Part shown: positions 2,525-20,708 of the stretch, one piece after another
Layout: each line of letters begins with the position of its first letter
Numbering within the stretch: the stretch's first letter is position 1
Origin: an uncultured Planctomycetia bacterium
GTDB taxonomy: Bacteria; Omnitrophota; Gorgyraeia; 2-02-FULL-51-18
Reading direction: 5' to 3'
Length of the DNA: 64,000 nucleotides
Assembly (NCBI GenBank): GCA_964478015.1
Contig: CAYZGM010000001.1
Coordinates: 2,981 to 66,980, forward strand
The notes under the pieces: model-generated
Seen by the model: the letters and a program-made list of their open reading frames with translations, nothing else
What the model was told of the DNA's origin: nothing
Database searches by the model: none
Translations under genes and position numbers: made by a program

Positions 2525-4337
2525 CCTCCCTTTTGACTTTCAGGGTCGGTGTTAGCTCGCCGGAGGCCTGACTAAAATCTTTATCCAGAAGGGCAAAAAA
2601 TTTGATGCGTTCGTAGGGCGCAAAATCTTTCATGAGTTCTTGCACGCGTCCATCCATGAATTGAAAAATCTTTGGATTGTGTAGCAGATCCTGGTAATCT
2701 CGGTGCTCAATTTTTTGCTCAAGGGCCCATTCCGCGAGAGGGGCCTCCTTAGGAACAATCAGCGCGGTGATGCATTTTTTCCCCTCGCCAAAAAGGACGC
2801 AGCGCAAAATGTAGGGGTCCTTTTCAAGGAGAACTTCGATCGGTCTGGGGGTTATTTTTTTACCGCCGGAGGTGACGATAAGCTCCTTTTTTCTTCCCGT
2901 GATAAACAAAAATCCCTCGGAGTCAAGGTGGCCCAGATCCCCGGTATAAAACCAGCCGTCTTTGAGCGCCTGCGCGGTCTCGACCGGCTTTCGAAAGTAG
3001 CCTTTCATGACGCAGGCGCTTCGTGTGATGATCTCGCCATCCTCGGAAATCTTTACTTCCACCGTCCGAAGCGGAATACCCACGGAGCCAAAACGGTGCC
3101 GATCGTGACGATTCACCGTGATGACCGGAGCTGTCTCCGTCAATCCGTATCCCTCGTAGATCATGACGCCGAGGTCACAAAAAAACTCACCAATCTCCTT
3201 TGACAACGGGGCTCCGCCTGACACGCAAAAACGCAGACGCCCTCCGAGCCCCTTTTTAAACTTATGGTAAACCAAGATTTCGGCCAGGGGCGTCGAAAGC
3301 TTGGCCATCCAGCCTGTTTTTTCTCCCACCCTTTTTCTACGTCCCAGTTCGCGAGCGTAAGCGAACAGTCCTTGCCGGAACGGACTTGCCGAGCGCACCT
3401 TGTCCATGACCCGTGTTTGGATTTTCTCAAAGAACCGAGGGACTCCCAAAATAAAGGTTGGTCGTATCTCAGAAATATTCTGCGGGACGGTATCCAAATT
3501 TTCTGCATAGGCGATCGTCGCGCCCAGACGGACCATCAGGTAATGTCCGGCCATTCGTTCGAACACATGGCAAAGCGGCAGGAAAGATAAGTGTACGTCG
3601 GCGGAGCTCATTTTCAGGGTTTCTTCCGACAGAACAACATTTTGGATGAAATTCGAGTGTGTCAGCATCACTCCTTTTGGGGTCCCGGTCGTTCCGGAAG
3701 TGTAAATGATGCTGGCCAGCTCAGACGACCCGACATTTTTCCGGATCCGGTCCAAATCCTCATGCGTTGGCGTGTTCCAAAGATCCGAGGTTCCAAAGAT
3801 AGGGATCTCAATCTCCCTGCGATCTAGGAGCACGGAGCTTTCAAAAGCGATCATTCCTCGCAGGGACGGTACTTGTCTTTGAATGGAGCTTACTTTCTGG
3901 AACAGAGCTTTATTGGAAAGCGCAAGCCACTCACAGGCGGAATCCACAAGAATGTATTGGATTTCGGAGGCGCTGAGCGTGGTGTAGATCGGAACCGTGG
4001 AAGCGCCGATCGAAAGGGCCGCAAAGTCTGTGATGAGCCATTCAGGCCGGTTTTCCGAGAGGATCCCGATCCGATCGCCAGTTTTTACACCCTGCTTTAA
4101 AAAAAAAGAAGCCAGGGCATTCACGCGGCGCTGGACCTGATCCCAGCCCAGGCCTTGATATTTTTGATTCTCCTTGTGGAATAGGGTTTTTTTTGTCGGG
4201 GTTCGAAAGGATGTTTCTTGCAGCAAAAGCGCCAAATTCTGCGGTGGTGTATTCAAGAGGCCTTTGGTGGGGTCAATTGTCCGTAAATTTCGGTTGGCGT
4301 TTTTCAATGAATGCCCGAATACCCTCCCGCATGTCAT
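2469..4337 (-). CDS. Long-chain fatty acid--CoA ligase (AMP-binding superfamily)
   Basis: YTSGTTGTPKGVMLTH AMP-binding motif, GYGLTET, TGDLG, C-terminal GELTPTLKVKR; the ORF-track start at 4478 overlaps the crotonase gene, so the internal Met at 4337 is more plausible. Confidence 0.85.
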   Translation of the reverse strand: MTCGRVFGHSLKNANRNLRTIDPTKGLLNTPPQNLALLLQETSFRTPTKKTLFHKENQKYQGLGWDQVQRRVNALASFFLKQGVKTGDRIGILSENRPEWLITDFAALSIGASTVPIYTTLSASEIQYILVDSACEWLALSNKALFQKVSSIQRQVPSLRGMIAFESSVLLDRREIEIPIFGTSDLWNTPTHEDLDRIRKNVGSSELASIIYTSGTTGTPKGVMLTHSNFIQNVVLSEETLKMSSADVHLSFLPLCHVFERMAGHYLMVRLGATIAYAENLDTVPQNISEIRPTFILGVPRFFEKIQTRVMDKVRSASPFRQGLFAYARELGRRKRVGEKTGWMAKLSTPLAEILVYHKFKKGLGGRLRFCVSGGAPLSKEIGEFFCDLGVMIYEGYGLTETAPVITVNRHDRHRFGSVGIPLRTVEVKISEDGEIITRSACVMKGYFRKPVETAQALKDGWFYTGDLGHLDSEGFLFITGRKKELIVTSGGKKITPRPIEVLLEKDPYILRCVLFGEGKKCITALIVPKEAPLAEWALEQKIEHRDYQDLLHNPKIFQFMDGRVQELMKDFAPYERIKFFALLDKDFSQASGELTPTLKVKREVVQNRYKDLLQSFYAAER

Positions 4338-7527: not shown

Positions 7528-9615
7528 TCAGACATTCTGCTGCGATACAAGCGCTTTTATCTTCGGAAGAAGCCGCAGGGTCTCTTCTTCTCCCCGATGA
7601 ATGAAAGGGGCCGGTTTATAGAAGTTGACCCAGCTCGAGTTCGGAAGAACCGGCCTCACAAGAACGTCTGCGCCCTCCCCCTCAATGTCAGCAATTTCCG
7701 CTTCCATCGATTGGATCGTGTTCATCAAAATATCGAATAAGTTGGGCGAAAAAAACCGGGCCATGGATTGCTTGAACCAAAAAAGACCTTGGGCTGCGAA
7801 GCCTTTCTCCATTGCTTCGGACCGGGCTTTTTCTACGGCCTCATTCTTGATCAGTCTTTTTTCCATCATGTCCTTGCTCGTGGGAAAGACGTTTACGGCG
7901 ATCACCTTGTTGGCTCCGGCCTGATGGAGCGCACGAATGGGCAAAGGGTTTAAAATACCGCCGTCGACGATGACATTCCCATCCATCATGATCGGTTTGA
8001 TGATGGCCGGGATCGCGATCGAGGCCCTGACAGCGTCTGCCACGGAACCCGATTCGAACAGGAAGCTTTGCCGTGTGGTGAGATTGGCCGCTGTTACTTT
8101 TAGAGAGATGCGGCATTGATCGAAGCTTTTATTGCCAAGATACTTGCGAAAATGGCGGATTACCTGTTGCCCGTGAAGCAGACCCCTGTAGGGGAAGAGG
8201 TTGATGTCAATAAGATTGCTCATCAGAAGCCTCAAATTAATCTGCATGGCGGCTTTCTCGATCTCCATGGGATTGAGCCCCACCGCATAGAGCGAGCCGA
8301 TCAAAGCGCCTATGCTGGAACCGGCGATGATATCCACGGGTATTTTTTCGCGCTCCAGTACTTTTAAGACGCCAATATGCGCCAGGCCAAAGGCCGCACC
8401 GCTGCCCAGCGCTAACCCGACAAGATTCCCGCTCAGGTATCGTGCCATGTGGCGTATGCGGCGCGAGTATTCCGCGTCAGGGTTTTCGGTGACAATGGGC
8501 CACCCAGCCCCCTGGTCCTGACTGGCCGGTGCGATCGGCACGGAAAAACATCGCTTTTTCCCAAACATTTCTTGTCTTAGCGCAGCCGTTGTGTGAGCGC
8601 CGAAAGCGACCTCATGGATCACGATGACGATCTTGTCCTCGGGGAATGACAACGATTTTTCGATGTCACGCAAGGCATCCCGAGATTCCGCAAGGCTATT
8701 GAGATGACTATCTGTGACGAGAAATAAAAAATCGGACTGCGATACGGCTTTCATGGACGCCTCATCGGGCTCCGGGCTCAGATCCATGACGATGAAGCGG
8801 AAATCGATCGACAGATGATTCAAAAGCGAAATCAACGTCGCGTGGGCATCCGTGTCTTTCGGGTCGTAGGATAAACAAAGAAAATCAAAACCGGCGCGAT
8901 GCTTCAAAAGACGGCTTTTCAATTCTTCGGCGGAAAAAGATTCGATGTTCTGGAAATTTCTGAGCGGAATCTTTTCAATGCGTTCACCGAGCGACGGGCC
9001 CTCTGATCCCGAGGAGGACAGATCCAGCAGAACCGTCTTTTGGCGGGTCTGCTCCAGAAGGCTGGCCGCCAAATTCATGGAGAAAAAACCTCTCTGGGTT
9101 TTTGGCAAACTTCCATAGATCGAGAGAATATCGCTTTTAAAAAGCGAGCGGGAACGAGTTTCGGTTATCTTGAGGCGAGAACTCAGGCGCCGGCTAAGTT
9201 CAAGCGAAATCGTGGCATTACGTTCGATGGATTTTTTAAAACCATCCTTTTTTATTTCGAGTACCAGGGAATCCGAGAGAGCGTGGATTGTAGCGGAATG
9301 CGGTTGCTCCGTAAGAAGGGACATTTCGCCAAAATAATCACCGCGCCGAAGGTACGCCAGGACCTTTTTCTTGTCGAGTACCGTGACGAATGCCTCGAAG
9401 CGGCCCGAAACAATGACGTAAAAACTCTCCGCCTCCCCGCCCTCCCGGTAAACAGTTTCATCTTTTTTGTACTCGACCAGGCGCATCAGCTGGCTGATGG
9501 ATCTTAGCTCCCAAGGACTTAATCCTGCAAAGAGCGGGCATTGGCCCAACAGCACAACCTTGTCAATTTTCTGGAAACGATTGCCTGCGTCCTGACCGAG
9601 CGGCGCCGAGTCCAT
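7528..9615 (-). CDS. Cyclic-nucleotide-binding-domain-containing patatin-like phospholipase (NTE-like architecture)
   Basis: N-terminal CAP_ED domain (GDYFGEMSLL ... HSATIHA); C-terminal patatin domain with GSGAAFG oxyanion loop, GSSIG nucleophile motif and VIVDGG catalytic Asp; start overlaps the PilZ stop (TAATG). Confidence 0.85.
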   Translation of the reverse strand: MDSAPLGQDAGNRFQKIDKVVLLGQCPLFAGLSPWELRSISQLMRLVEYKKDETVYREGGEAESFYVIVSGRFEAFVTVLDKKKVLAYLRRGDYFGEMSLLTEQPHSATIHALSDSLVLEIKKDGFKKSIERNATISLELSRRLSSRLKITETRSRSLFKSDILSIYGSLPKTQRGFFSMNLAASLLEQTRQKTVLLDLSSSGSEGPSLGERIEKIPLRNFQNIESFSAEELKSRLLKHRAGFDFLCLSYDPKDTDAHATLISLLNHLSIDFRFIVMDLSPEPDEASMKAVSQSDFLFLVTDSHLNSLAESRDALRDIEKSLSFPEDKIVIVIHEVAFGAHTTAALRQEMFGKKRCFSVPIAPASQDQGAGWPIVTENPDAEYSRRIRHMARYLSGNLVGLALGSGAAFGLAHIGVLKVLEREKIPVDIIAGSSIGALIGSLYAVGLNPMEIEKAAMQINLRLLMSNLIDINLFPYRGLLHGQQVIRHFRKYLGNKSFDQCRISLKVTAANLTTRQSFLFESGSVADAVRASIAIPAIIKPIMMDGNVIVDGGILNPLPIRALHQAGANKVIAVNVFPTSKDMMEKRLIKNEAVEKARSEAMEKGFAAQGLFWFKQSMARFFSPNLFDILMNTIQSMEAEIADIEGEGADVLVRPVLPNSSWVNFYKPAPFIHRGEEETLRLLPKIKALVSQQNV

Positions 9616-9986
9616 TAAACCTTACGAGTCAGCCGGCTTTCAATGAATCTGACCAGGATTTCGCGGTCCTGATCCGATATTTTGGAAAAATAAAGGGCGA
9701 GAAAGTAATCGTCGGACGAGGGGTCTTTTTCGCGTCGCACCACCACTGCTTTCATGCGCAGGGTTTTGCCGTGCTTCGCATTCTTGTCCACTGGCGGGAG
9801 CATCAGCGCAAGCGCCACCTGCGTCATCAGAGGAATATTTTTATCCACCAGACACAATGCCCCATGTTCGCTGATGTTGACTGTCCGCGCCCGGGCCTCA
9901 TAATTCTGGTGGCCTATCTTAAAGGGCAGCTCCTCGTCAACTCGGACCGAGCGCCGCCGATCTAAGATCGGTTTTGGGGTTCTCAT
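9615..9986 (-). CDS. PilZ domain protein (c-di-GMP receptor)
   Basis: RRRSVR (RxxxR) and NISEHGA (D/NxSxxG) motifs in correct spacing; start taken at internal MRTPKPIL, overlapping the upstream gene stop by 4 nt. Confidence 0.7.
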   Translation of the reverse strand: MRTPKPILDRRRSVRVDEELPFKIGHQNYEARARTVNISEHGALCLVDKNIPLMTQVALALMLPPVDKNAKHGKTLRMKAVVVRREKDPSSDDYFLALYFSKISDQDREILVRFIESRLTRKV

Positions 9987-10267
9987 TCCGCTGTGGCAGC
10001 GGGCGCGGACTGGGCTTGGGCCGCTTTCGCCGCCGCCTCTTCCTGGGCTTTCTTGGTCTTCGCGGCTTCCTGCGTGACATATAGCTGAAAGCACTGTTTG
10101 TTAGCGAAATATTTTCCATCACGATAGTACCAGTCCTTACGGCGAATACGCTTGTTGGACTGCGCGCAGTTGGTGGGACGCGATTTTTTCTTTTTGAGTT
10201 TTTTTAAAGGCGTCTCAGCAGATTCTGTCTTGGCTGCAGCGGACTTTGTTTCTTCTACCATGATCAT
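9983..10267 (-). CDS. Small basic Lys/Ala-rich protein of unknown function (about 94 aa)
   Basis: MIMVEETKSAAAKTESAETPLKKLKKKKSRPTNCAQSNKRIRRKDWYYRDGKYFANKQCF... with a GGAG SD 5-8 nt upstream of the ATG at 10267; embedded between two PilZ genes. Confidence 0.4.
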   Translation of the reverse strand: MIMVEETKSAAAKTESAETPLKKLKKKKSRPTNCAQSNKRIRRKDWYYRDGKYFANKQCFQLYVTQEAAKTKKAQEEAAAKAAQAQSAPAATAE

Positions 10268-10373: not shown

Positions 10374-10754
10374 CTAGGCTTGAGCTTGTTTCTTGTTCGT
10401 CCTCAACCATTCACGGTAAACATACTCGAGAACACGCGTTCGATCGTGCAGGCTGATTTTTGTAAGACGTATTCCCGCCTCGAGCCCGTCAGCCCAAGCG
10501 ACTTTTCCTGTGGCAAAGACGGGTAGGTTGTCTCCCGGAACATTCATGCAGACTTCGATGGGAGTTCCGGAAGCGACGGTTTCTTTGAAGCCAACACGCA
10601 TCCCCTCCCGGCTCAAGTCTTTCGCCAGCGTTTTCCCAAATATGGGATTCAGCGTCAGCGTACGAAATTCCAAATCGAGCGGCGCATTGAAGCGCATGAA
10701 TTTACGTCTTTCAGTGGCGGTGAGGTTGGGTCGTGATCCCGAATCGTCAGTCAT
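10374..10754 (-). CDS. PilZ domain protein (c-di-GMP receptor), second copy
   Basis: RRKFMR (RxxxR) and DLSREGM (DxSxxG) motifs; start overlaps the HTH gene stop by 8 nt. Confidence 0.7.
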   Translation of the reverse strand: MTDDSGSRPNLTATERRKFMRFNAPLDLEFRTLTLNPIFGKTLAKDLSREGMRVGFKETVASGTPIEVCMNVPGDNLPVFATGKVAWADGLEAGIRLTKISLHDRTRVLEYVYREWLRTNKKQAQA

Positions 10755-14107: not shown

Positions 14108-14418
14108 CCTGCAGAAATTTCTTTATCCAGGGTGAGCAAAGTCAATTTGTCGCCATCCTTAGCCGCCAAAAGCATCCCCTGGGATTCCACGCCGCGAATA
14201 ATGCTGGGAACAAGATTCGTAACAACAACCACCATTTTTCCGAGCAATTCCTCTCGGGAGTAGAACTTCTTGATGCCTGCAACCACGGTCTTTTTTTCTG
14301 CACCCAGATCTATGTCAACTCGCCACAGGCGGTCCGCTCCGGGGATCTCCTGGGCATCCAGGATCTTGGCCGCTCGAAGCTGAGTCTTCTTGAAATCTTC
14401 GAGGGTCAGATCGCTCAT
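14092..14418 (-). CDS. tRNA-binding domain protein (CsaA / Trbp111 / MetRS C-domain-like)
   Basis: LRAAKILDAQEIPGADRLWRVDIDLGAEKKTVVAGI ... VVVVTNLVPSIIRGVESQGMLLAA OB-fold tRNA-binding domain signature. Confidence 0.8.
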   Translation of the reverse strand: MSDLTLEDFKKTQLRAAKILDAQEIPGADRLWRVDIDLGAEKKTVVAGIKKFYSREELLGKMVVVVTNLVPSIIRGVESQGMLLAAKDGDKLTLLTLDKEISAGCPIG

Positions 14419-14723
14419 TTCTTATCAGATTTTCCGGCTGCGCCTTTTCCGCCGGGAGCTGCTGAGCCCTTGGCGGCAACGGGAGCTGCCGTTGTCGCGT
14501 CCGCTTTTGCCGGAGCTCCCGCACCCGCTGCCCCCGCTTCAGCCACCGCTTTTTCCTTCTTAACCTTGATACGCTGCATCTTTACCTTTGGGATGCCAAG
14601 AACCGAAATGCTCTCGCCCCACAGACTTTTATCTTTCAAAACTTTCAAACGCTCATAGCGTTTAAGCACCGAACGATGCTTCTTGCCTTTTCCTCCCGCG
14701 CGCAAACTCGAATGTATCGACAT
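14415..14723 (-). CDS. Small basic protein with an Ala/Gly/Lys-rich low-complexity tail (histone-H1-like composition); coding status uncertain
   Basis: MSIHSSLRAGGKGKKHRSVLKRYERLKVLKDKS ... AEAGAAGAGAPAKADATTAAPVAAKGSAAPGGKGAAGKSDKK; no family motif recognised. Confidence 0.3.
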   Translation of the reverse strand: MSIHSSLRAGGKGKKHRSVLKRYERLKVLKDKSLWGESISVLGIPKVKMQRIKVKKEKAVAEAGAAGAGAPAKADATTAAPVAAKGSAAPGGKGAAGKSDKK

Positions 14724-14767: not shown

Positions 14768-15361
14768 TTACCGTCGGCGCAGAAAACAATCCTTGTATTT
14801 GCTCGAAAAGCGCGCCTGATCCTTTTTCGCCTCCTCCTTAGAGGCGTATTGTCCGGCGCATACCTGAAAATACTCACCGCTGGGAATGATCGAACTGGTA
14901 AAACCCATTTGTTGGAGGGCCGCCATCTCTGCCTCTGCGAGCGATTTCTTGCGGTGGGTCACCAGCTGGATCGTATAAGGTTTTGCGGACGCTTCCACGG
15001 CTGCCGGTCCCGGGTTTTGGGCCCGTTCCGGTGCCATGGAAATGGTCGGGGAAACTGCCGGTGTTGTCTGCGATCTCTTCTGGTGGGTTTCGATCGTTGG
15101 GGCGGCTGGGCTCGCTTGGATGGTCCGGGATGAGGTTAGGGCAGACCGCACAATAGATTTGCCGCGCAGGACACCCAAGAAAAATACTCCGCAAAGAAGC
15201 AGAATCACGAGAATGCCGCCCATCAACAACTGCTCTGTGTTGGTGCTCAGCAGAATCGGTTTTTGCGACCGCGGCAGGCCCGGAAAACGCTCCGCTTTTT
15301 TTGGCTCTTGCGAAAACTGCTCAAAAAGTTCTTGCTGGGTCTCTTTCGACTTTGGATCCAT
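14768..15361 (-). CDS. SPOR domain protein (peptidoglycan-binding, cell-division associated), single TM
   Basis: TM segment LLMGGILVILLLCGVFFLGVL; C-terminal YTIQLVTHRKKSLAEAEMAALQQMGFTSSIIPSGEYFQVCAGQYASKEEAKK fits the SPOR fold pattern. Confidence 0.7.
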   Translation of the reverse strand: MDPKSKETQQELFEQFSQEPKKAERFPGLPRSQKPILLSTNTEQLLMGGILVILLLCGVFFLGVLRGKSIVRSALTSSRTIQASPAAPTIETHQKRSQTTPAVSPTISMAPERAQNPGPAAVEASAKPYTIQLVTHRKKSLAEAEMAALQQMGFTSSIIPSGEYFQVCAGQYASKEEAKKDQARFSSKYKDCFLRRR

Positions 15362-15413: not shown

Positions 15414-16001
15414 TTACTGCCAGCTCGCTTCAAGCATTCGGCCGGAAGCTCCGTACAACACCCAGCGCCCTCCGCTGGAAGATATCTTTGCAACGCGAGT
15501 GCCGTCGCCAAATTTTGGAAAACGCCTGTCGACCAATTTTGAGAATGGCTCTAGCGAATTTTCCGGAACGCATAGCCGCAAGAAAATCTTTTGGATTTTT
15601 CCGTTTTTCAAAGAAAATCCCGCGCGCAGCGCCGCCTCTCCGATCCTGCCATCAAGCAACCGCACGCTCCACCCTCCCCGCTTCGGGAGCCACACCCAGC
15701 GAGAATCCTGCAACTCCAAGCGCTCCGTTCCGTTGAAATTTTTAAATATTTGGTTCAAAGAAAAAAGCTGTGTCTTAGACATCTTCCCGAGGGTTATTTT
15801 TTTTATTGAGAATTCGGCGCCAAAAAGAAAGAATTTCGTGTGAATTCCCTGAATTTGAATGGGGTGGCCTGCCATGCGCGCGCATTGGATCGATAACCCT
15901 CGATCTACCAAGGGGTTAGGGAATAAGATCAGGGCGAGTAAAAATGCAGACGCACCGGCAAGGATCGTCATCACAGGTCGGAGGAGCCGACGTTTATGCA
16001 C
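15414..16001 (-). CDS. Hypothetical membrane-anchored protein; start overlaps the stop of the GAF/HD-GYP gene
   Basis: N-terminal hydrophobic anchor VMTILAGASAFLLALILF; no recognisable domain; 8 nt overlap with the upstream gene suggests co-translation. Confidence 0.4.
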   Translation of the reverse strand: MHKRRLLRPVMTILAGASAFLLALILFPNPLVDRGLSIQCARMAGHPIQIQGIHTKFFLFGAEFSIKKITLGKMSKTQLFSLNQIFKNFNGTERLELQDSRWVWLPKRGGWSVRLLDGRIGEAALRAGFSLKNGKIQKIFLRLCVPENSLEPFSKLVDRRFPKFGDGTRVAKISSSGGRWVLYGASGRMLEASWQ

Positions 16002-17172
16002 GCGGCGTTCGCCTCAGTCTCTTATAAAGGCTTTCTTTTTTAACGATGCGAATAAAGGCGTCCACGACTTTCGGATCAAACTGGGATCCACTGTTTCTTT
16101 CAAGCTCCGTCAAAGCCTGAGCCTGCGTCAATTGGCCGCGATAAGGCCGGCCTATGATGATCGCCTCGAAAGCATTCATCACAGACAGAATGCGCGCCCC
16201 GATCGGAATTGCATCGCCGGCCAGCCCCTCCGGATAACCTGTGCCGTCGTATTTTTCGCGGGAGTAGAGAATGATTGGGGCGACGGTTTTCAAGTTTTCA
16301 AATTTTAAGACGATCTTGGCGCCGTGAGCCGGATGATCGCGAAGGGCCCAAAACTCCTCCCGCGTCAGTTTGGAGGGTTTTCTCAGAATTTCCTCTGGGA
16401 TGCCAATCTTGGTGGTTTCTTTCAAAAGAGCCGCATAATGAAGCGCTTGTTTTTGCTCATCGGACAATCCCAGTAAGTCCGCGGTTCTTAGCGCCATATG
16501 GGCGAACATCTCTGGGGACATGACCGATTGGTTGGGCGACCTGCTCCCGAGGATGCTGGCCAGGGACTGGATGGTGCTGAGCGTAACGCGACGCTGCTCC
16601 TCATAGAGCTGGGCGTTCTTGATGGCAATCACCGCTTCTTCCGCGAGGGTGGTCAGGATCTCCAGATCAAAGTGATTAAACGCGTTTCTATCTTTTTTTC
16701 CCGAGACCGTGACGACACCGATAACATCCTCGTCAATGAGCGGGATACAAAGGGTTTTTTTTCTCAGCTGGATTTCCGCGGACTTGGCGACCCGCCCCTC
16801 CATCTTCTTTCCTAGGGAGATCGCTCTCTCTGCGGGCCCCTTTTTTGGATATCCCACAAGCGCCTTGCAGACAAGGTGGCCCTTTTTTTTGTTGCTTTTA
16901 TCAAGCAGGTAGATCGAACACCGGTTTACGCGTAAGACCTGCGCCGTCAAATAAGCAAGCCGGGATACCAGCTCATCGAGGTTTAGGGTTGAATTGATGA
17001 TGCGGTGCACCGTGTGGACGGTCGAAAGCGCGATGGCTCGCGGTCGAATGGTGGCGGAGAGGCGGTTCAACTCCTCGGATTTCCAAAAGTTTTCCAGGCA
17101 GGAATGCAATGCGTACGCAAGCGGCGCTAACGAGGCTTTTGCCGCGTCCGGGGTCGCCTTGGCAATAACCAA
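15994..17172 (-). CDS. GAF domain / degenerate HD-GYP domain protein; the ORF probably extends about 110 codons further upstream (to about 17505) with no canonical start codon
   Basis: GAF-like LCIPLIDEDVIGVVTVS; HD-GYP scaffold with GYP motif YDGTGYPEGL, but the HD dyad is replaced (AALLKETTKIG in place of LLHDIGK) and HHE is replaced by YSRE. Confidence 0.75.
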   Translation of the reverse strand: MVIAKATPDAAKASLAPLAYALHSCLENFWKSEELNRLSATIRPRAIALSTVHTVHRIINSTLNLDELVSRLAYLTAQVLRVNRCSIYLLDKSNKKKGHLVCKALVGYPKKGPAERAISLGKKMEGRVAKSAEIQLRKKTLCIPLIDEDVIGVVTVSGKKDRNAFNHFDLEILTTLAEEAVIAIKNAQLYEEQRRVTLSTIQSLASILGSRSPNQSVMSPEMFAHMALRTADLLGLSDEQKQALHYAALLKETTKIGIPEEILRKPSKLTREEFWALRDHPAHGAKIVLKFENLKTVAPIILYSREKYDGTGYPEGLAGDAIPIGARILSVMNAFEAIIIGRPYRGQLTQAQALTELERNSGSQFDPKVVDAFIRIVKKESLYKRLRRTPRA

Positions 17173-17516
17173 ATAGCCGAGAAAGCGACCTCCAAGATTA
17201 ATCGGTAGACAAAGGAGCGCCTCTTTGTGAGAAAGTTCATGGCAAAGAGCGTGTTCAGACTTGGTGACCCTGCGTTTTAGCGCGGGTGCCGCCTTGCGAA
17301 GCTCTTGTGAAAAGTGATGCGTGTGTCCATCCTGCCAGATAGCGGCGGAAACTTTTGAAGTTTGAAGCCATTGCCGTGCATTCAGTTTGAGTCTCGGCAG
17401 AAGCCACCAGACCGTTCCCGGCAGGCAAAGGCGGAACGCCTCTCTTAGCTTTTTGAGCGCAGGGTCTTTCTGAAGATTATCGAACAGCTCTTTTTCGCCA
17501 GCGATGGTCTGCCTCC

Positions 17517-18695
17517 TTAACCTCTTTCGAATGCTTCAAAAAAACGACGGTACTCGTCCTGAGCGTACCGGTCGGTCATTCCCGCCAGATAATCGCAAAT
17601 GACCCGATGGGGACCCTCGGTTTTGAGCCGCCGCTGACTCCCGGGCGGCAATTGCTCGGGGCGAGACAAATACACCTCAAAGAGCTCGCGCAGAAAGCGG
17701 CGGGCCTTATCGCTCATCCTCACGACCCGGTAATGCCTGTAAAGGCGTGTTTTCAAAAAATCCCTCAACTCTTCGCGTTTCTTGAGGAGTTCCGGACTAA
17801 ACCCGATGAGAAAATGGTCTATTTGCATGGCTTGCGCCGCATTGCGAAGACTGTGCATTTTAATTTTTTTTACCGAATGACGAATTAAGTCCGTCACCTC
17901 TAGGTTGATCAGCCCCCGGATGATCTGATATTTCCTGACGTCTGGATTCTTGATGGATTTGCCGCCAACCTTCGTGCTTACAGCCCTCCACAGAGCCAGC
18001 TTGGCCAGCTCTTCCTCCTTAATAAGACCAGAGGTAAGCCCATCGTCAATGTCATGATTATCATAAGCGATTTCGTCCGCGACATCCACTGTCTGGGATT
18101 CCAGGGACGGCGATAAAAAACTATGAAACTTCCCCATGCCAGACTGTTCGGCTTTCTTAACGAGCTCGGGATGCTTAAAAAGCCCCACTCGGGTTTCATA
18201 AGATAAGTTGAGCCCGCGAAAGGCCGGATAGCGTTCTTCCAAATAATCCACGATGCGTAAGCTTTGGAGGTTGTGATCGAATCCGCCATGATTTACCATA
18301 AGCTCGCGCAGCTCATCTTCCCCGGCGTGCCCAAAGGGGGTATGGCCCAGGTCATGCGCAAGCGTGATGGTTTCGACAAGATCCGAGTTGAGACGCAAGA
18401 CTTTAGCGATGACCCGCGCCACCTGACTGGTTTCCAGCGAATGTGTTAATCGCGTACGGTAATAATCTCCCTCATGGTTCACGAATACCTGTGTTTTGTA
18501 TTCCATTCTCCGAAATGCGGTGCTGTGGATGATGCGGTCCCGGTCGCGTTGAAACGCGGTGCGGTAAGGGTGCTCTTTCTCTCTGTGAACGCGGCCGCGG
18601 CTATCACAGCTTTTGGTGGCATAAGGCGCCAGAGATCTTTTTTCTTCTTTTTCTAAAGTGATGCGACGAACTCCTTGGTTCAAGTTGGTTGTCAT
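17517..18695 (-). CDS. dGTP triphosphohydrolase-like HD-domain protein (Dgt family)
   Basis: RTRLTHSLETSQVARVIA ... ITLAHDLGHTPFGHAGE ... DVADEIAYDNHDIDDG are classic Dgt motifs; the start (MTTNLN) lies 2 nt after the stop of the upstream ATPase gene. Confidence 0.9.
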   Translation of the reverse strand: MTTNLNQGVRRITLEKEEKRSLAPYATKSCDSRGRVHREKEHPYRTAFQRDRDRIIHSTAFRRMEYKTQVFVNHEGDYYRTRLTHSLETSQVARVIAKVLRLNSDLVETITLAHDLGHTPFGHAGEDELRELMVNHGGFDHNLQSLRIVDYLEERYPAFRGLNLSYETRVGLFKHPELVKKAEQSGMGKFHSFLSPSLESQTVDVADEIAYDNHDIDDGLTSGLIKEEELAKLALWRAVSTKVGGKSIKNPDVRKYQIIRGLINLEVTDLIRHSVKKIKMHSLRNAAQAMQIDHFLIGFSPELLKKREELRDFLKTRLYRHYRVVRMSDKARRFLRELFEVYLSRPEQLPPGSQRRLKTEGPHRVICDYLAGMTDRYAQDEYRRFFEAFERG

Positions 18696-18696
18696 T

Positions 18697-20388
18697 TTAC
18701 GCGGATGCGGCCTGAACGGCCGCCGGCACTCCAAGGCGGATGGGTTTTGCGGTTTGAATAATGGGTGATTTGCCGTAGAGGTCCATCAATAGGTTGATGC
18801 GCGAAAGCCCGAGAGTCAGGATTCTTTTTTCTTTGGCAAGGAGTTTGGCATTATCCTCCATCCCATTCAGCGCCAGCAGCACTTTTGTGTGGCTGCTCTT
18901 TTTATCGGAAAAGCCTTGAACCAATTCCAAAACTTCCCGCTCAGTCGCTTTGTCTTCGACAATTTTGCAGACCCAGCAGCGCCCGTTCCCCTTGGCGACA
19001 ATATCCCGGGAGTTTGAATTTGTTTGAGGCCCGGCGGCCGGCCGCAAAAACTCCGAAAAATGAGGAAGTTTACGTTTTTTTTCTCCCAACTCCACGATAT
19101 CGTTCTGAAACTCGCTAAAAAGAGCCAAAATCCGCCTCGAGACATCCACCCCAGATGACGCCTCCTCTTCCTCCAGAACTTCTGTCATGCGACGCAGAAA
19201 ACCCTCGCTTTTTGCGGTAGTCCCTAGGAGGGACAGTTCCTTTTTTTGGTAAACTTCCTTTAGCCAGAACCTGAATGTTTTGTTGTGGAATCGGTAAAAA
19301 ACCCCGTTTTTTACGATTAGCTCATGTTCGATCAGCTCCTGCAGTTGGACCGAGGTCTCACGCTGGTTACGATTGATGCTGGAGGCAATGTCCTTAATCC
19401 GGTTCTTCCCATTGGCGATCTGGGTCAGAATGAGCACGTGGCTTCCTCTGGAAACGGCCTGGGTCCACGGGGAGATCAGTTTGGAGAAATATTGGTTTAA
19501 GACCCCCTGAGACTCGTAAAAAAGTTTGAGGAGTGTTTCACAAACACTTTGTTGGCTGACTTGCGTTTCGTTCTTAGAAAGAGCCAATTCGCGTAATCGA
19601 GAAACGGTGTTCTCCAGTAAAAAAGGATGCCCGTCCGTCAAGGACACGAAAAATTTTTGCAGGGTCATAGGAACTTCGACAGGCGCCATCTTTTGAGTGA
19701 TGAATTGGAAAGCGGTTTCAAAATCAAAAGCCTCCAGATACACGCGCTCAAAATGACCGAATAACAACGTCAACTTTTCAGCCAAAATCTTCCGACTTTG
19801 AGAAAAAGAAGAGCTGGAAAGAATGTACAGAGTGTCTTTTTGAACCATGATGCGTTTGCCAAAATCCGAAAATGCATTCTTGATTCCGAATTCGCCAAGC
19901 CGGTGAAATTCATCCAGGATCACAATGGTGTTCTTGCCCGTCTCCTGTTTAAGGACATGGGTCAACTCAAACAGTTTCACGTAGGCTTCCTCCGCGTGCC
20001 GCTGCTTCAGCAAGACTGCTATTTCTCCGATGCGGGAAACGGTCTTTGGGATAAAAGCGCTCGCCTTTTCCGCAAGGGAAATCAGCGTGTCCGCCGGGTC
20101 CGCTTCCCCGCGCTGAGTCAAATACTGGTAAAGCAGGGATCGAATGAATTGATCGACGAAATAGTCCAGGGCTTGAAACTTGATTTCAACGTAGATGGGA
20201 AGAATTTCCTCGTCACGAAAAACGTGCATGAAGTGACGCAGGACTGATGATTTTCCGAGTTGCTGATGTCCGATGATCGCGACATTCTGGCGGTAACCAG
20301 ACTTGAGCCCATTCGCGCGCTTGATCAGAAGATCAATTACTTCTTGTCGGCCAAAGAAATTATCGCCGACAACGGGATCGCTGAACAT
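18697..20388 (-). CDS. PF01637-type (archaeal-ATPase-like) P-loop NTPase with a DUF234-like winged-helix region and a C-terminal domain carrying a candidate PD-(D/E)xK motif
   Basis: FFGRQEVIDLL ... VAIIGHQQLGKSSVL Walker A; IVILDEFHRL Walker B; wHTH-like IKDIASSINRNQRETSVQLQELIEHELIVKNGVFYRF; C-terminal RDIVAKGNGRCWVCKIVEDK (D...EDK). Confidence 0.75.
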   Translation of the reverse strand: MFSDPVVGDNFFGRQEVIDLLIKRANGLKSGYRQNVAIIGHQQLGKSSVLRHFMHVFRDEEILPIYVEIKFQALDYFVDQFIRSLLYQYLTQRGEADPADTLISLAEKASAFIPKTVSRIGEIAVLLKQRHAEEAYVKLFELTHVLKQETGKNTIVILDEFHRLGEFGIKNAFSDFGKRIMVQKDTLYILSSSSFSQSRKILAEKLTLLFGHFERVYLEAFDFETAFQFITQKMAPVEVPMTLQKFFVSLTDGHPFLLENTVSRLRELALSKNETQVSQQSVCETLLKLFYESQGVLNQYFSKLISPWTQAVSRGSHVLILTQIANGKNRIKDIASSINRNQRETSVQLQELIEHELIVKNGVFYRFHNKTFRFWLKEVYQKKELSLLGTTAKSEGFLRRMTEVLEEEEASSGVDVSRRILALFSEFQNDIVELGEKKRKLPHFSEFLRPAAGPQTNSNSRDIVAKGNGRCWVCKIVEDKATEREVLELVQGFSDKKSSHTKVLLALNGMEDNAKLLAKEKRILTLGLSRINLLMDLYGKSPIIQTAKPIRLGVPAAVQAASA

Positions 20389-20634: not shown

Positions 20635-20708
20635 TGGAGCGGGTGATGGGAATCGAACCCACATCTAAAGCTTGGGAAGCTTTCATTCTACCACTGAACT
20701 ACACCCGC
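20635..20708 (-). tRNA. tRNA-Gly (anticodon CCC), CCA encoded
   Basis: Reverse complement GCGGGTGTAGTTCAGTGGTAGAATGAAAGCTTCCCAAGCTTTAGATGTGGGTTCGATTCCCATCACCCGCTCCA folds as a cloverleaf; the anticodon loop TTCCCAA gives CCC. Confidence 0.85.

Follow-up and report, generated by a model that had tools for sequence, protein, structure and literature searches.

The subject of this report is a gene on the minus strand of a 64,000-nucleotide stretch of contig CAYZGM010000001.1 (the window, by which we mean the whole stretch analysed) that encodes a protein ending in an HD-GYP domain, the fold of a family of cyclic di-GMP (c-di-GMP) phosphodiesterases, in which most metal-binding residues have been replaced. 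The program-made list of open reading frames places this gene at 15994-17172 (-), with a TTG start at 17172 and a product of 392 residues, and the public protein identical to it (P0001) is annotated at the same length. The reading frame stays open upstream of the TTG to about 17535 (-), and the translation of these roughly 110 additional codons aligns with the N-terminal regions of homologues of about 500 residues. No in-frame ATG, GTG or TTG lies upstream of 17172 within the open frame. A candidate non-canonical start codon, ATC (17503-17505), is found 6 nucleotides after a Shine-Dalgarno-like AAGGAGG (17512-17518), which in turn overlaps the TAA stop (17519-17517) of the upstream gene, dgt, about 11 nucleotides ahead of the ATC. 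ATC after a purine-rich run also occurs in two related contigs (L016, ~3021-3039, and L007, ~2285-2300), the first of which encodes a relative 77% identical across the full 503 residues and the second one 67% identical; in three further relatives (P0008, P0085 and L009) the codon here or close by is ATG. Because the upstream frame matches the homologues, the ATC follows AAGGAGG and the relatives have ATC or ATG there, we assign the gene to 15994-17505 (503 codons plus stop). It apparently starts at the conserved ATC codon to give a product of about 503 residues, and the public 392-residue call is truncated.

The product is laid out as a GAF-like N-terminal domain, a long helix, a GAF domain, another long helix and the degenerate HD-GYP domain. 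The N-terminal domain (residues 1-117; 17155-17505) is an alpha/beta domain of GAF-like or roadblock-like fold and is the most variable part of the protein. It is followed by a long helix in the secondary structure of an AF2 model (residues 119-172; 16990-17151), whose C-terminal half, PRAIALSTVHTVHRIINS, is nearly invariant in the alignment columns and is kept in orthologues of 37-45% identity. The most conserved stretch of the whole protein, RLSATIRPRAIALSTVHTVHRIINSTLNLDEL, runs from the end of this helix into helix 1 of the GAF domain (residues ~148-192; ~16930-17064 (-)) and is nearly invariant even among those distant positional orthologues. The GAF domain (residues 175-297; 16615-16983) is recognized by Pfam (GAF_3, 2.6e-10; GAF, 3.8e-10) and by Foldseek matches to GAF structures, and it directly precedes the HD-GYP domain (residues 292-480; 16066-16632), which matches Pfam HD_5 at E=1.8e-39 (135.6 bits; cut-off 27.2) and HD at E=6.9e-8. 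This GAF-HD-GYP order appears in the census of Galperin and Chou. The Pfam scan gave no match in residues 1-170 and a single GAF in the entire protein. Set against a tandem-GAF module of the PDE2/5/6 or CyaB2 type, which has two recognisable GAF domains, the protein shows one Pfam GAF and one sandwich that is GAF-like or roadblock-like by fold only, and the plural in the first-pass annotation, which had the HD-GYP domain fused to GAF domains, is only partly right.

The family assignment itself is secure. A phmmer search of the PDB matched the c-di-GMP phosphodiesterase PmGH (4mcw, 8.8e-30), V-cGAP3 (7.4e-29), DvhD (9rbz, 2e-23) and PA4781 (1.6e-19), as well as the DvhD entry 9rc0 and Bd1817. 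The AF2 model, built from 63 homologues with a mean pLDDT of 82, shows the alpha/beta domain at residues 1-117, the helix at 119-172, the GAF domain at 176-270, a helix at 278-320 and then the helical HD-GYP domain, with no membrane segment predicted. A Foldseek search with this model ranked 4mcw first and also returned 9rbz (TMt 0.72-0.74) and 4r8z. By both sequence and fold, the protein is a member of the HD-GYP family.

PmGH provides the reference for the active site. Its metal ligands are E185, H189, H221, D222, H250, H276, H277 and D305; D183 and K225 act in catalysis, D308 has a structural role, and the contacts to c-di-GMP are made by Y285, R314, K317 and K235 (PMC4159591). Alanine substitution at any one of H189, H221, D222, H250, H276 and H277 abolishes activity (PMC4159591). 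We mapped these residues with HMMER, MAFFT and pairwise alignments, and the four independent alignments agree. The loop and helix start at the D183/E185/H189 site (residues 323-330; 16516-16539) read SPNQSVMS and contain neither His nor an acidic residue, so that S323 replaces the catalytic D183, N325 replaces E185 and either M329 or S330 replaces H189. At the HD dyad, K362-E363 (16417-16422, within LLKETTKIG) stands for H221-D222, the Glu being a conservative change, and S415-R416-E417 (16255-16263, within ILYSREKYDG) stands for the HHE motif H276-H277-E278, of which only the Glu is kept. D305-x-x-D308 is replaced by N444-A-F-E447 (16165-16176, within MNAFEAI; N444 at 16176-16174, E447 at 16167-16165), which costs one ligand and turns the structural Asp into Glu. 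Only H250, retained as H391 (16333-16335 (-)), is unchanged among the eight ligands and is the sole metal-ligand His left; D222 has become Glu and the other six are replaced. Among the hallmarks of active HD-GYP c-di-GMP phosphodiesterases of the PmGH, RpfG and TM0186 type, the protein lacks the HD dyad, HHE, H189, D305 and D183 and keeps H250 and K225 (K366).

The residues that read the nucleotide have fared differently. The GYP motif (G284-Y285-P286 in PmGH; here G423-Y424-P425, 16231-16239, within DGTGYPEGL) is intact in the alpha9-alpha10 loop, and this loop, ILYSREKYDGTGYPEGLKG, is nearly invariant in the homologue alignment. The Tyr of this motif hydrogen-bonds a phosphate of c-di-GMP in PmGH (PMC4159591) and in DvhD (PMC13090378). 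K235 is kept as K376, and R453-P-Y455-R456 (16138-16149) corresponds to R314/Y316/K317 of PmGH and R650/Y652/R653 of DvhD, so that all four PmGH contacts, K235, Y285, R314 and K317, are kept, the last as Arg.

The first-pass annotation had read the motifs of this domain from the sequence, and the readings hold: YDGTGYPEGL, LKETTKIG at the dyad, YSREKYDG ahead of GYP and NAFEAI at the DxxDA position are all found in the minus-strand translation, and every alignment puts the first three against GYP, H221-D222 and H276-H277-E278, with Asn at ligand D305 and Glu at structural D308. Misalignment of the motifs can be ruled out. The four alignments to characterised HD-GYP proteins agree and place no HD or HHE ligand at a shifted position, and conserved His are too scarce in the domain to supply one: residues 321-495 contain four His, of which only H356 and H391 are conserved, and H356 aligns to a non-ligand Lys of PmGH. 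The joint loss of metal ligands that had been claimed stands for most of them, although H250 survives and D222 is conservatively replaced. The range that had been quoted for the domain, 15994-16500, takes in the four motifs but leaves out the domain start, where E185, H189 and D183 are also lost, because the HD_5 match spans about 16066-16632. Since H189, H221, H276 and H277, four of the six residues essential in PmGH, are non-conservatively replaced, D222 is Glu and D183 is lost, the proposal of a degenerate, non-enzymatic domain is supported, and the domain is very probably unable to hydrolyse c-di-GMP. Automatic labels such as "c-di-GMP phosphodiesterase" or "HD domain-containing phosphohydrolase" are probably wrong for the clade to which this protein belongs.

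These substitutions are shared by the whole clade. A search of 5.8 billion proteins listed 120 homologous cluster representatives, which are 61-88% identical over the 392-residue query and, for the 62 aligned at full length, 50-77% identical over 503 residues; those with names come from Omnitrophota metagenome-assembled genomes. In these 120, the position of H221 is Lys in 118 and Arg in 2, that of D222 is Asp in 87 and Glu in 33, that of H276 is Ser in 114 and that of H277 is Arg in 119. The D305 position is Asn in 114 and the D308 position Glu in 119, and each of the two candidate columns for H189 has His in a single protein. The retained residues are just as constant: GYP, E417 and R453 are present in all 120, Y455 in 119, R456 in 116 and the His at H391 in 118. 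Against the L016 relative (85% identity in the domain), the HD-GYP domain has a proportion of nonsynonymous differences (pN) of 0.075 and of synonymous differences (pS) of 0.746; synonymous sites are saturated in this comparison, so we read it qualitatively and give no dN/dS figure. Constraint on the HD-GYP domain is at least that on the GAF domain and far greater than that on the N-terminal domain. The domain is under purifying selection and is not decaying, because the ligand substitutions are fixed in the homologues and pN is far below pS. We note that several contigs with clear orthologues (among L009-L015) bear the label "uncultured Planctomycetia bacterium", whereas the nearest named relatives are Omnitrophota; the label probably stems from a bin taxonomy that is coarse or wrong.

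We extended the family beyond this clade by searching 1.84 billion representatives, clustered at 50% identity, exhaustively with HMMER. This gave about 45 more proteins of about 500 residues with the same architecture; next in rank were ordinary multi-GAF HD-GYP proteins with the signature D-Y-H-S…HD..K…K…H…HHE…GYP…D..D…R.YR. Three of the ~500-residue proteins could be placed on contigs, and all three sit in the gene order of the window: ATPase – (HIT/Metallophos/ThyA) – dGTPase – the HD-GYP gene – (small or membrane protein) – SPOR – … – AroB. Their ligand states differ. One (P0127; L018, 5001-6509) keeps all seven core ligands; another (P0139; L017, 6001-7494) has L-D at the dyad and keeps H189, HHE and D305; the third (P0143; L019, 5001-6500) has lost H189 and keeps part of the ligands. 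Because such different ligand states occur in a shared gene order, we conclude that the metal site was taken apart within one positionally conserved orthologous group. Judged from these sequences, ligand loss is graded inside that group, and the large clade of the window protein is its most degenerate state.

The gene order around the HD-GYP gene is itself well conserved. Upstream lies dgt (17517-18734 (-)), a dGTP triphosphohydrolase of the housekeeping type, which scores 494.5 bits with the NCBIfam model NF002326 (cut-off 390). Downstream, and overlapping the HD-GYP stop by 8 nucleotides, is a gene with a GTG start for a 195-residue protein with an N-terminal hydrophobic, putatively membrane-anchoring stretch (15414-16001 (-)), which has no family assignment beyond a weak match to DUF748 (E=0.025). 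A similar unannotated gene is downstream in four related loci (L001, L003, L005 and L019); L018 has no counterpart, none is called in a ~600-bp gap in L016, and L017 has a 94-residue gene only. Next comes a SPOR-domain protein (14768-15361 (-); Pfam SPOR, 2.7e-11) with weak similarity to ftsN (TIGR02223), which in the syntenic loci is always one to two genes downstream of the HD-GYP gene. Each of the seven independent related loci for which genes are called has a dGTPase upstream and a SPOR protein downstream, and in one of them a T2SSE gene is inserted between the dGTPase and the HD-GYP gene. Two small PilZ-domain genes (9618-10094 (-) and 10377-10754 (-)) adjoin an HTH_17 gene 5-6 kb away, and this PilZ cluster recurs in related loci. 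Because PilZ genes, which encode c-di-GMP effector domains, are present in the window and in four related loci (L001, L003, L017 and L018), the host organisms probably use c-di-GMP.

Several other features of the region are recorded here for completeness. A 563-residue AAA_16/ATPase_2 NTPase with a winged-helix domain (18697-20388 (-)) overlaps the dGTPase gene upstream by 38 nucleotides, holds the same position in all related loci and has no PADLOC hit. A tRNA-Gly(CCC) gene (20635-20708 (-)) lies between a PfkB-like gene and this ATPase; in related loci its place is taken by an M23 peptidase gene, which is seemingly absent from the window. Scanned in full against Rfam at gathering thresholds, the window gave this tRNA only, with no riboswitch or other RNA element near the HD-GYP gene. 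A small basic protein matching TIGR04137, of the Chlamydiae/Verrucomicrobia type, is encoded at 14415-14723 (-) and fits a PVC-group/Omnitrophota origin. A cyclic-nucleotide-binding domain and a patatin-like phospholipase are joined in a 695-residue protein (7531-9615 (-)), which is conserved in the same place in L001 and L003. We also considered and rejected an anti-phage defence island: PADLOC matches the dGTPase only, that protein passes the housekeeping NCBIfam model and not the antiphage one, and in every relative the cluster has aroB, pfk and thiamine genes around it.

What, then, does an HD-GYP domain do with its metal centre dismantled and its nucleotide contacts in place? Desulfovibrio vulgaris offers a precedent in DvhD (PDB 9RBZ/9RC0), a degenerate HD-GYP protein with SQ and MN at two of the motifs, which binds c-di-GMP with a dissociation constant of about 99 nM; it takes up cGAMP at about 0.5 uM, and pGpG and c-di-AMP poorly (PMC13090378). 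Its 1.8 A structure with c-di-GMP lacks metal density, and no hydrolysis was seen with any ion tested (PMC13090378). At the canonical site of DvhD, six of the nine residues that are named or mutated are kept in the window protein (Y621 as Y424, R650 as R453, Y652 as Y455, R653 as R456, L577 as L380 and, with a change, M646 as I449). At its bridging site, P567 (P370) and K520 (as R322) are kept and R569 is not. The first-pass annotation had raised a c-di-GMP sensor as a possibility, an idea for which DvhD is an experimental precedent. These retained canonical-site contacts, taken with that precedent, suggest to us that the dead domain may be a sensor and not a hydrolase, with metal-free binding of c-di-GMP or of a closely related cyclic dinucleotide containing guanine. 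We favour this reading at slightly better than even confidence, and our confidence that the ligand is c-di-GMP-like is moderate.

On this proposal the protein would be a soluble, probably dimeric sensor of the form GAF-like – helix – GAF – helix – HD-GYP, in which the bi- or tri-nuclear metal centre is no longer assembled, the nucleotide pocket is intact and c-di-GMP is bound metal-free at the canonical pocket, much as in DvhD. Lys362 and Arg416 would occupy the former positions of two metal-ligand His and could supply the phosphate contacts given by the metals in PmGH or by K582 in DvhD; alternatively, they may brace the emptied metal site through salt bridges to E363, E417 and E447. The signal of binding might travel along the helical stalks and the GAF modules, or pass to a partner, and the process under control may be tied to the conserved neighbours, the dGTPase upstream and the SPOR/FtsN-like division protein downstream. 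We put forward the roles of Lys362 and Arg416 and the output of signalling only weakly, and the links of that output to division or envelope and to the dGTPase are speculation.

Several observations weigh against metal-free c-di-GMP sensing. Three DvhD contacts are lost, K582 being replaced by F385 (F or Y in the family), E668 by S472 and Y523 by N325, and E668 makes a base-specific hydrogen bond in DvhD (PMC13090378); because these three are not conserved, ligand specificity may differ from that of DvhD. The AF2 model is least confident within parts of the HD-GYP domain, with pLDDT down to 59-71 over residues ~310-330 and ~360-430. A motif scan of the window for GGDEF, EAL or HD-GYP partners returned none, so that no GGDEF or EAL gene lies within these 64 kb. 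Finally, the protein contains no output domain, and signalling must for this reason run through partners.

A different account of the domain is that it is purely a protein-protein module that binds no nucleotide. Its GYP loop would dock a partner, for example a GGDEF protein, and sensing would fall to the GAF domains. The GYP motif is needed for the complex of RpfG with a GGDEF protein and is dispensable for catalysis (discussed in PMC4159591), the inactive YN-GYP protein PA2572 retains virulence regulation (PMC3411652), and the exposed GYP loop of our family is nearly invariant. Yet the pocket residues outside this loop (R453, Y455, R456, L380 and K376) are equally invariant, which a pure loop-docking role does not explain, and we regard this account as unlikely while still giving it real weight. 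On another account, the pocket is occupied by a different guanine nucleotide (pGpG, 3'3'-cGAMP, (p)ppGpp, GTP or dGTP) and the protein regulates, or is regulated with, the adjacent dGTPase. The guanine-reading residues R453 and R456 are kept while the base-specific E668 is not, DvhD itself accepts cGAMP, and the constant dGTPase neighbour is accompanied in the cluster by other nucleotide enzymes (HIT, Metallophos and ThyA). Against this, gene order conserved across a single phylum can be historical, a mononucleotide ligand in an HD-GYP pocket has no precedent in PmGH or DvhD, and pGpG and c-di-AMP are poor ligands for DvhD; we consider such a ligand distinctly improbable.

That the domain is still an enzyme, with a reduced, mononuclear site or another substrate, seems to us very improbable. 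H391, E363 (Asp in many homologues), E417 and E447 remain, so that one cation is conceivable, and some HD-GYP proteins are active with varied metals (references cited in PMC13090378). Single Ala substitutions at these ligand positions are, however, sufficient to kill PmGH (PMC4159591), the catalytic D183 is lost as well, and the similarly degraded DvhD is inactive with all ions tested (PMC13090378). Both metal sites are also affected. With H189, H221 and D305 at the M-site and H276 and H277 at the G-site, as in HD-domain geometry, each has lost at least two ligands. Finally, the 392-residue public call, truncated and without a canonical start codon, could suggest a decaying pseudogene or an artefact of assembly or annotation. 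We give this next to no credence: 503 codons run without a stop, the 120 listed clusters in which the substitutions are fixed derive from many separate metagenomes, pN lies well under pS and synteny is conserved, so that decay is effectively ruled out.

Beyond metal-free sensing by the single protein, a broader picture can be drawn, which we think quite unlikely as a whole: an Omnitrophota-wide syntenic regulator whose metal centre would have given way in function to cationic Lys (at H221) and Arg (at H277), giving a metal-free guanine-nucleotide receptor that would couple second-messenger status, or deoxynucleotide (dNTP) status by way of the adjacent dGTPase, to division or the envelope by way of the SPOR/FtsN-like neighbour, with the orthologues preserving the steps of the transition. 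Our literature search found no paper linking Omnitrophota with HD-GYP proteins, and no description of the K[D/E]/SR variant turned up in a search that was not aimed at that pattern.

Among the known systems, PmGH (Persephonella marina, PDB 4MCW) is the best match in sequence and fold, and the two proteins have in common the layout GAF–helix–HD-GYP as well as the substrate contacts. PmGH differs in having eight ligands and a tri-iron centre with which it hydrolyses c-di-GMP, where the window protein retains only H250 unchanged, and in lacking the extra N-terminal domain. LapD and FimX are degenerate EAL receptors, in which the fold of a c-di-GMP hydrolase without its catalytic metal ligands has been kept as a receptor; the logic proposed for the window protein is the same and the fold is unrelated. 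V-cGAP3 (PDB 5Z7C) gave a second phmmer alignment, on its N-terminal residues 153-251 (E=0.0015), a region that we take to be a degenerate regulatory HD-GYP domain. In V-cGAP3 the degenerate domain is fused to an active HD-GYP, whereas the dead HD-GYP of the window protein stands alone. PA2572 of Pseudomonas aeruginosa, whose phosphodiesterase activity is undetectable (PMC3411652), is likewise a non-canonical HD-GYP protein with a regulatory role, a likeness that we draw by description only; it is a REC-HD-GYP response regulator with a YN substitution.

By analogy, DvhD would be the closest functional precedent. In both proteins the HD dyad and the HH pair are replaced on an HD-GYP fold while the GYP Tyr and the R-x-Y-R residues of the pocket are kept, and the dimeric helical stalk ahead of the DvhD domain has a parallel in the long helix that precedes the HD-GYP domain here. 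The architectures are not alike: DvhD is a membrane protein (dCache-TM-PAS-HD-GYP) encoded in a Lap-like adhesin operon with the DvhG protease, whereas the window protein has no PAS or dCache domain by Pfam, is built as GAF-like–GAF–HD-GYP and lies in a dGTPase/SPOR/AroB cluster. The substitutions differ as well, SQ/MN in DvhD against K[D/E]/SR here. Inactive HD-GYP domains have long been known from genome censuses and the receptor concept is established; DvhD (2024-2026) is the only one proven to be a metal-free c-di-GMP receptor. The positional orthologues with full or partial ligand sets form a natural series for the change from hydrolase to receptor, and together with the Lys/Arg replacement and its fixation across the phylum they make the family a good experimental system. 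If metal-free sensing is correct, this family would add an independent second example of a metal-free HD-GYP receptor, new in its architecture, in the Lys and Arg that replace metal-ligand His and in its phylum-wide conservation in the uncultured, small-genome Omnitrophota.

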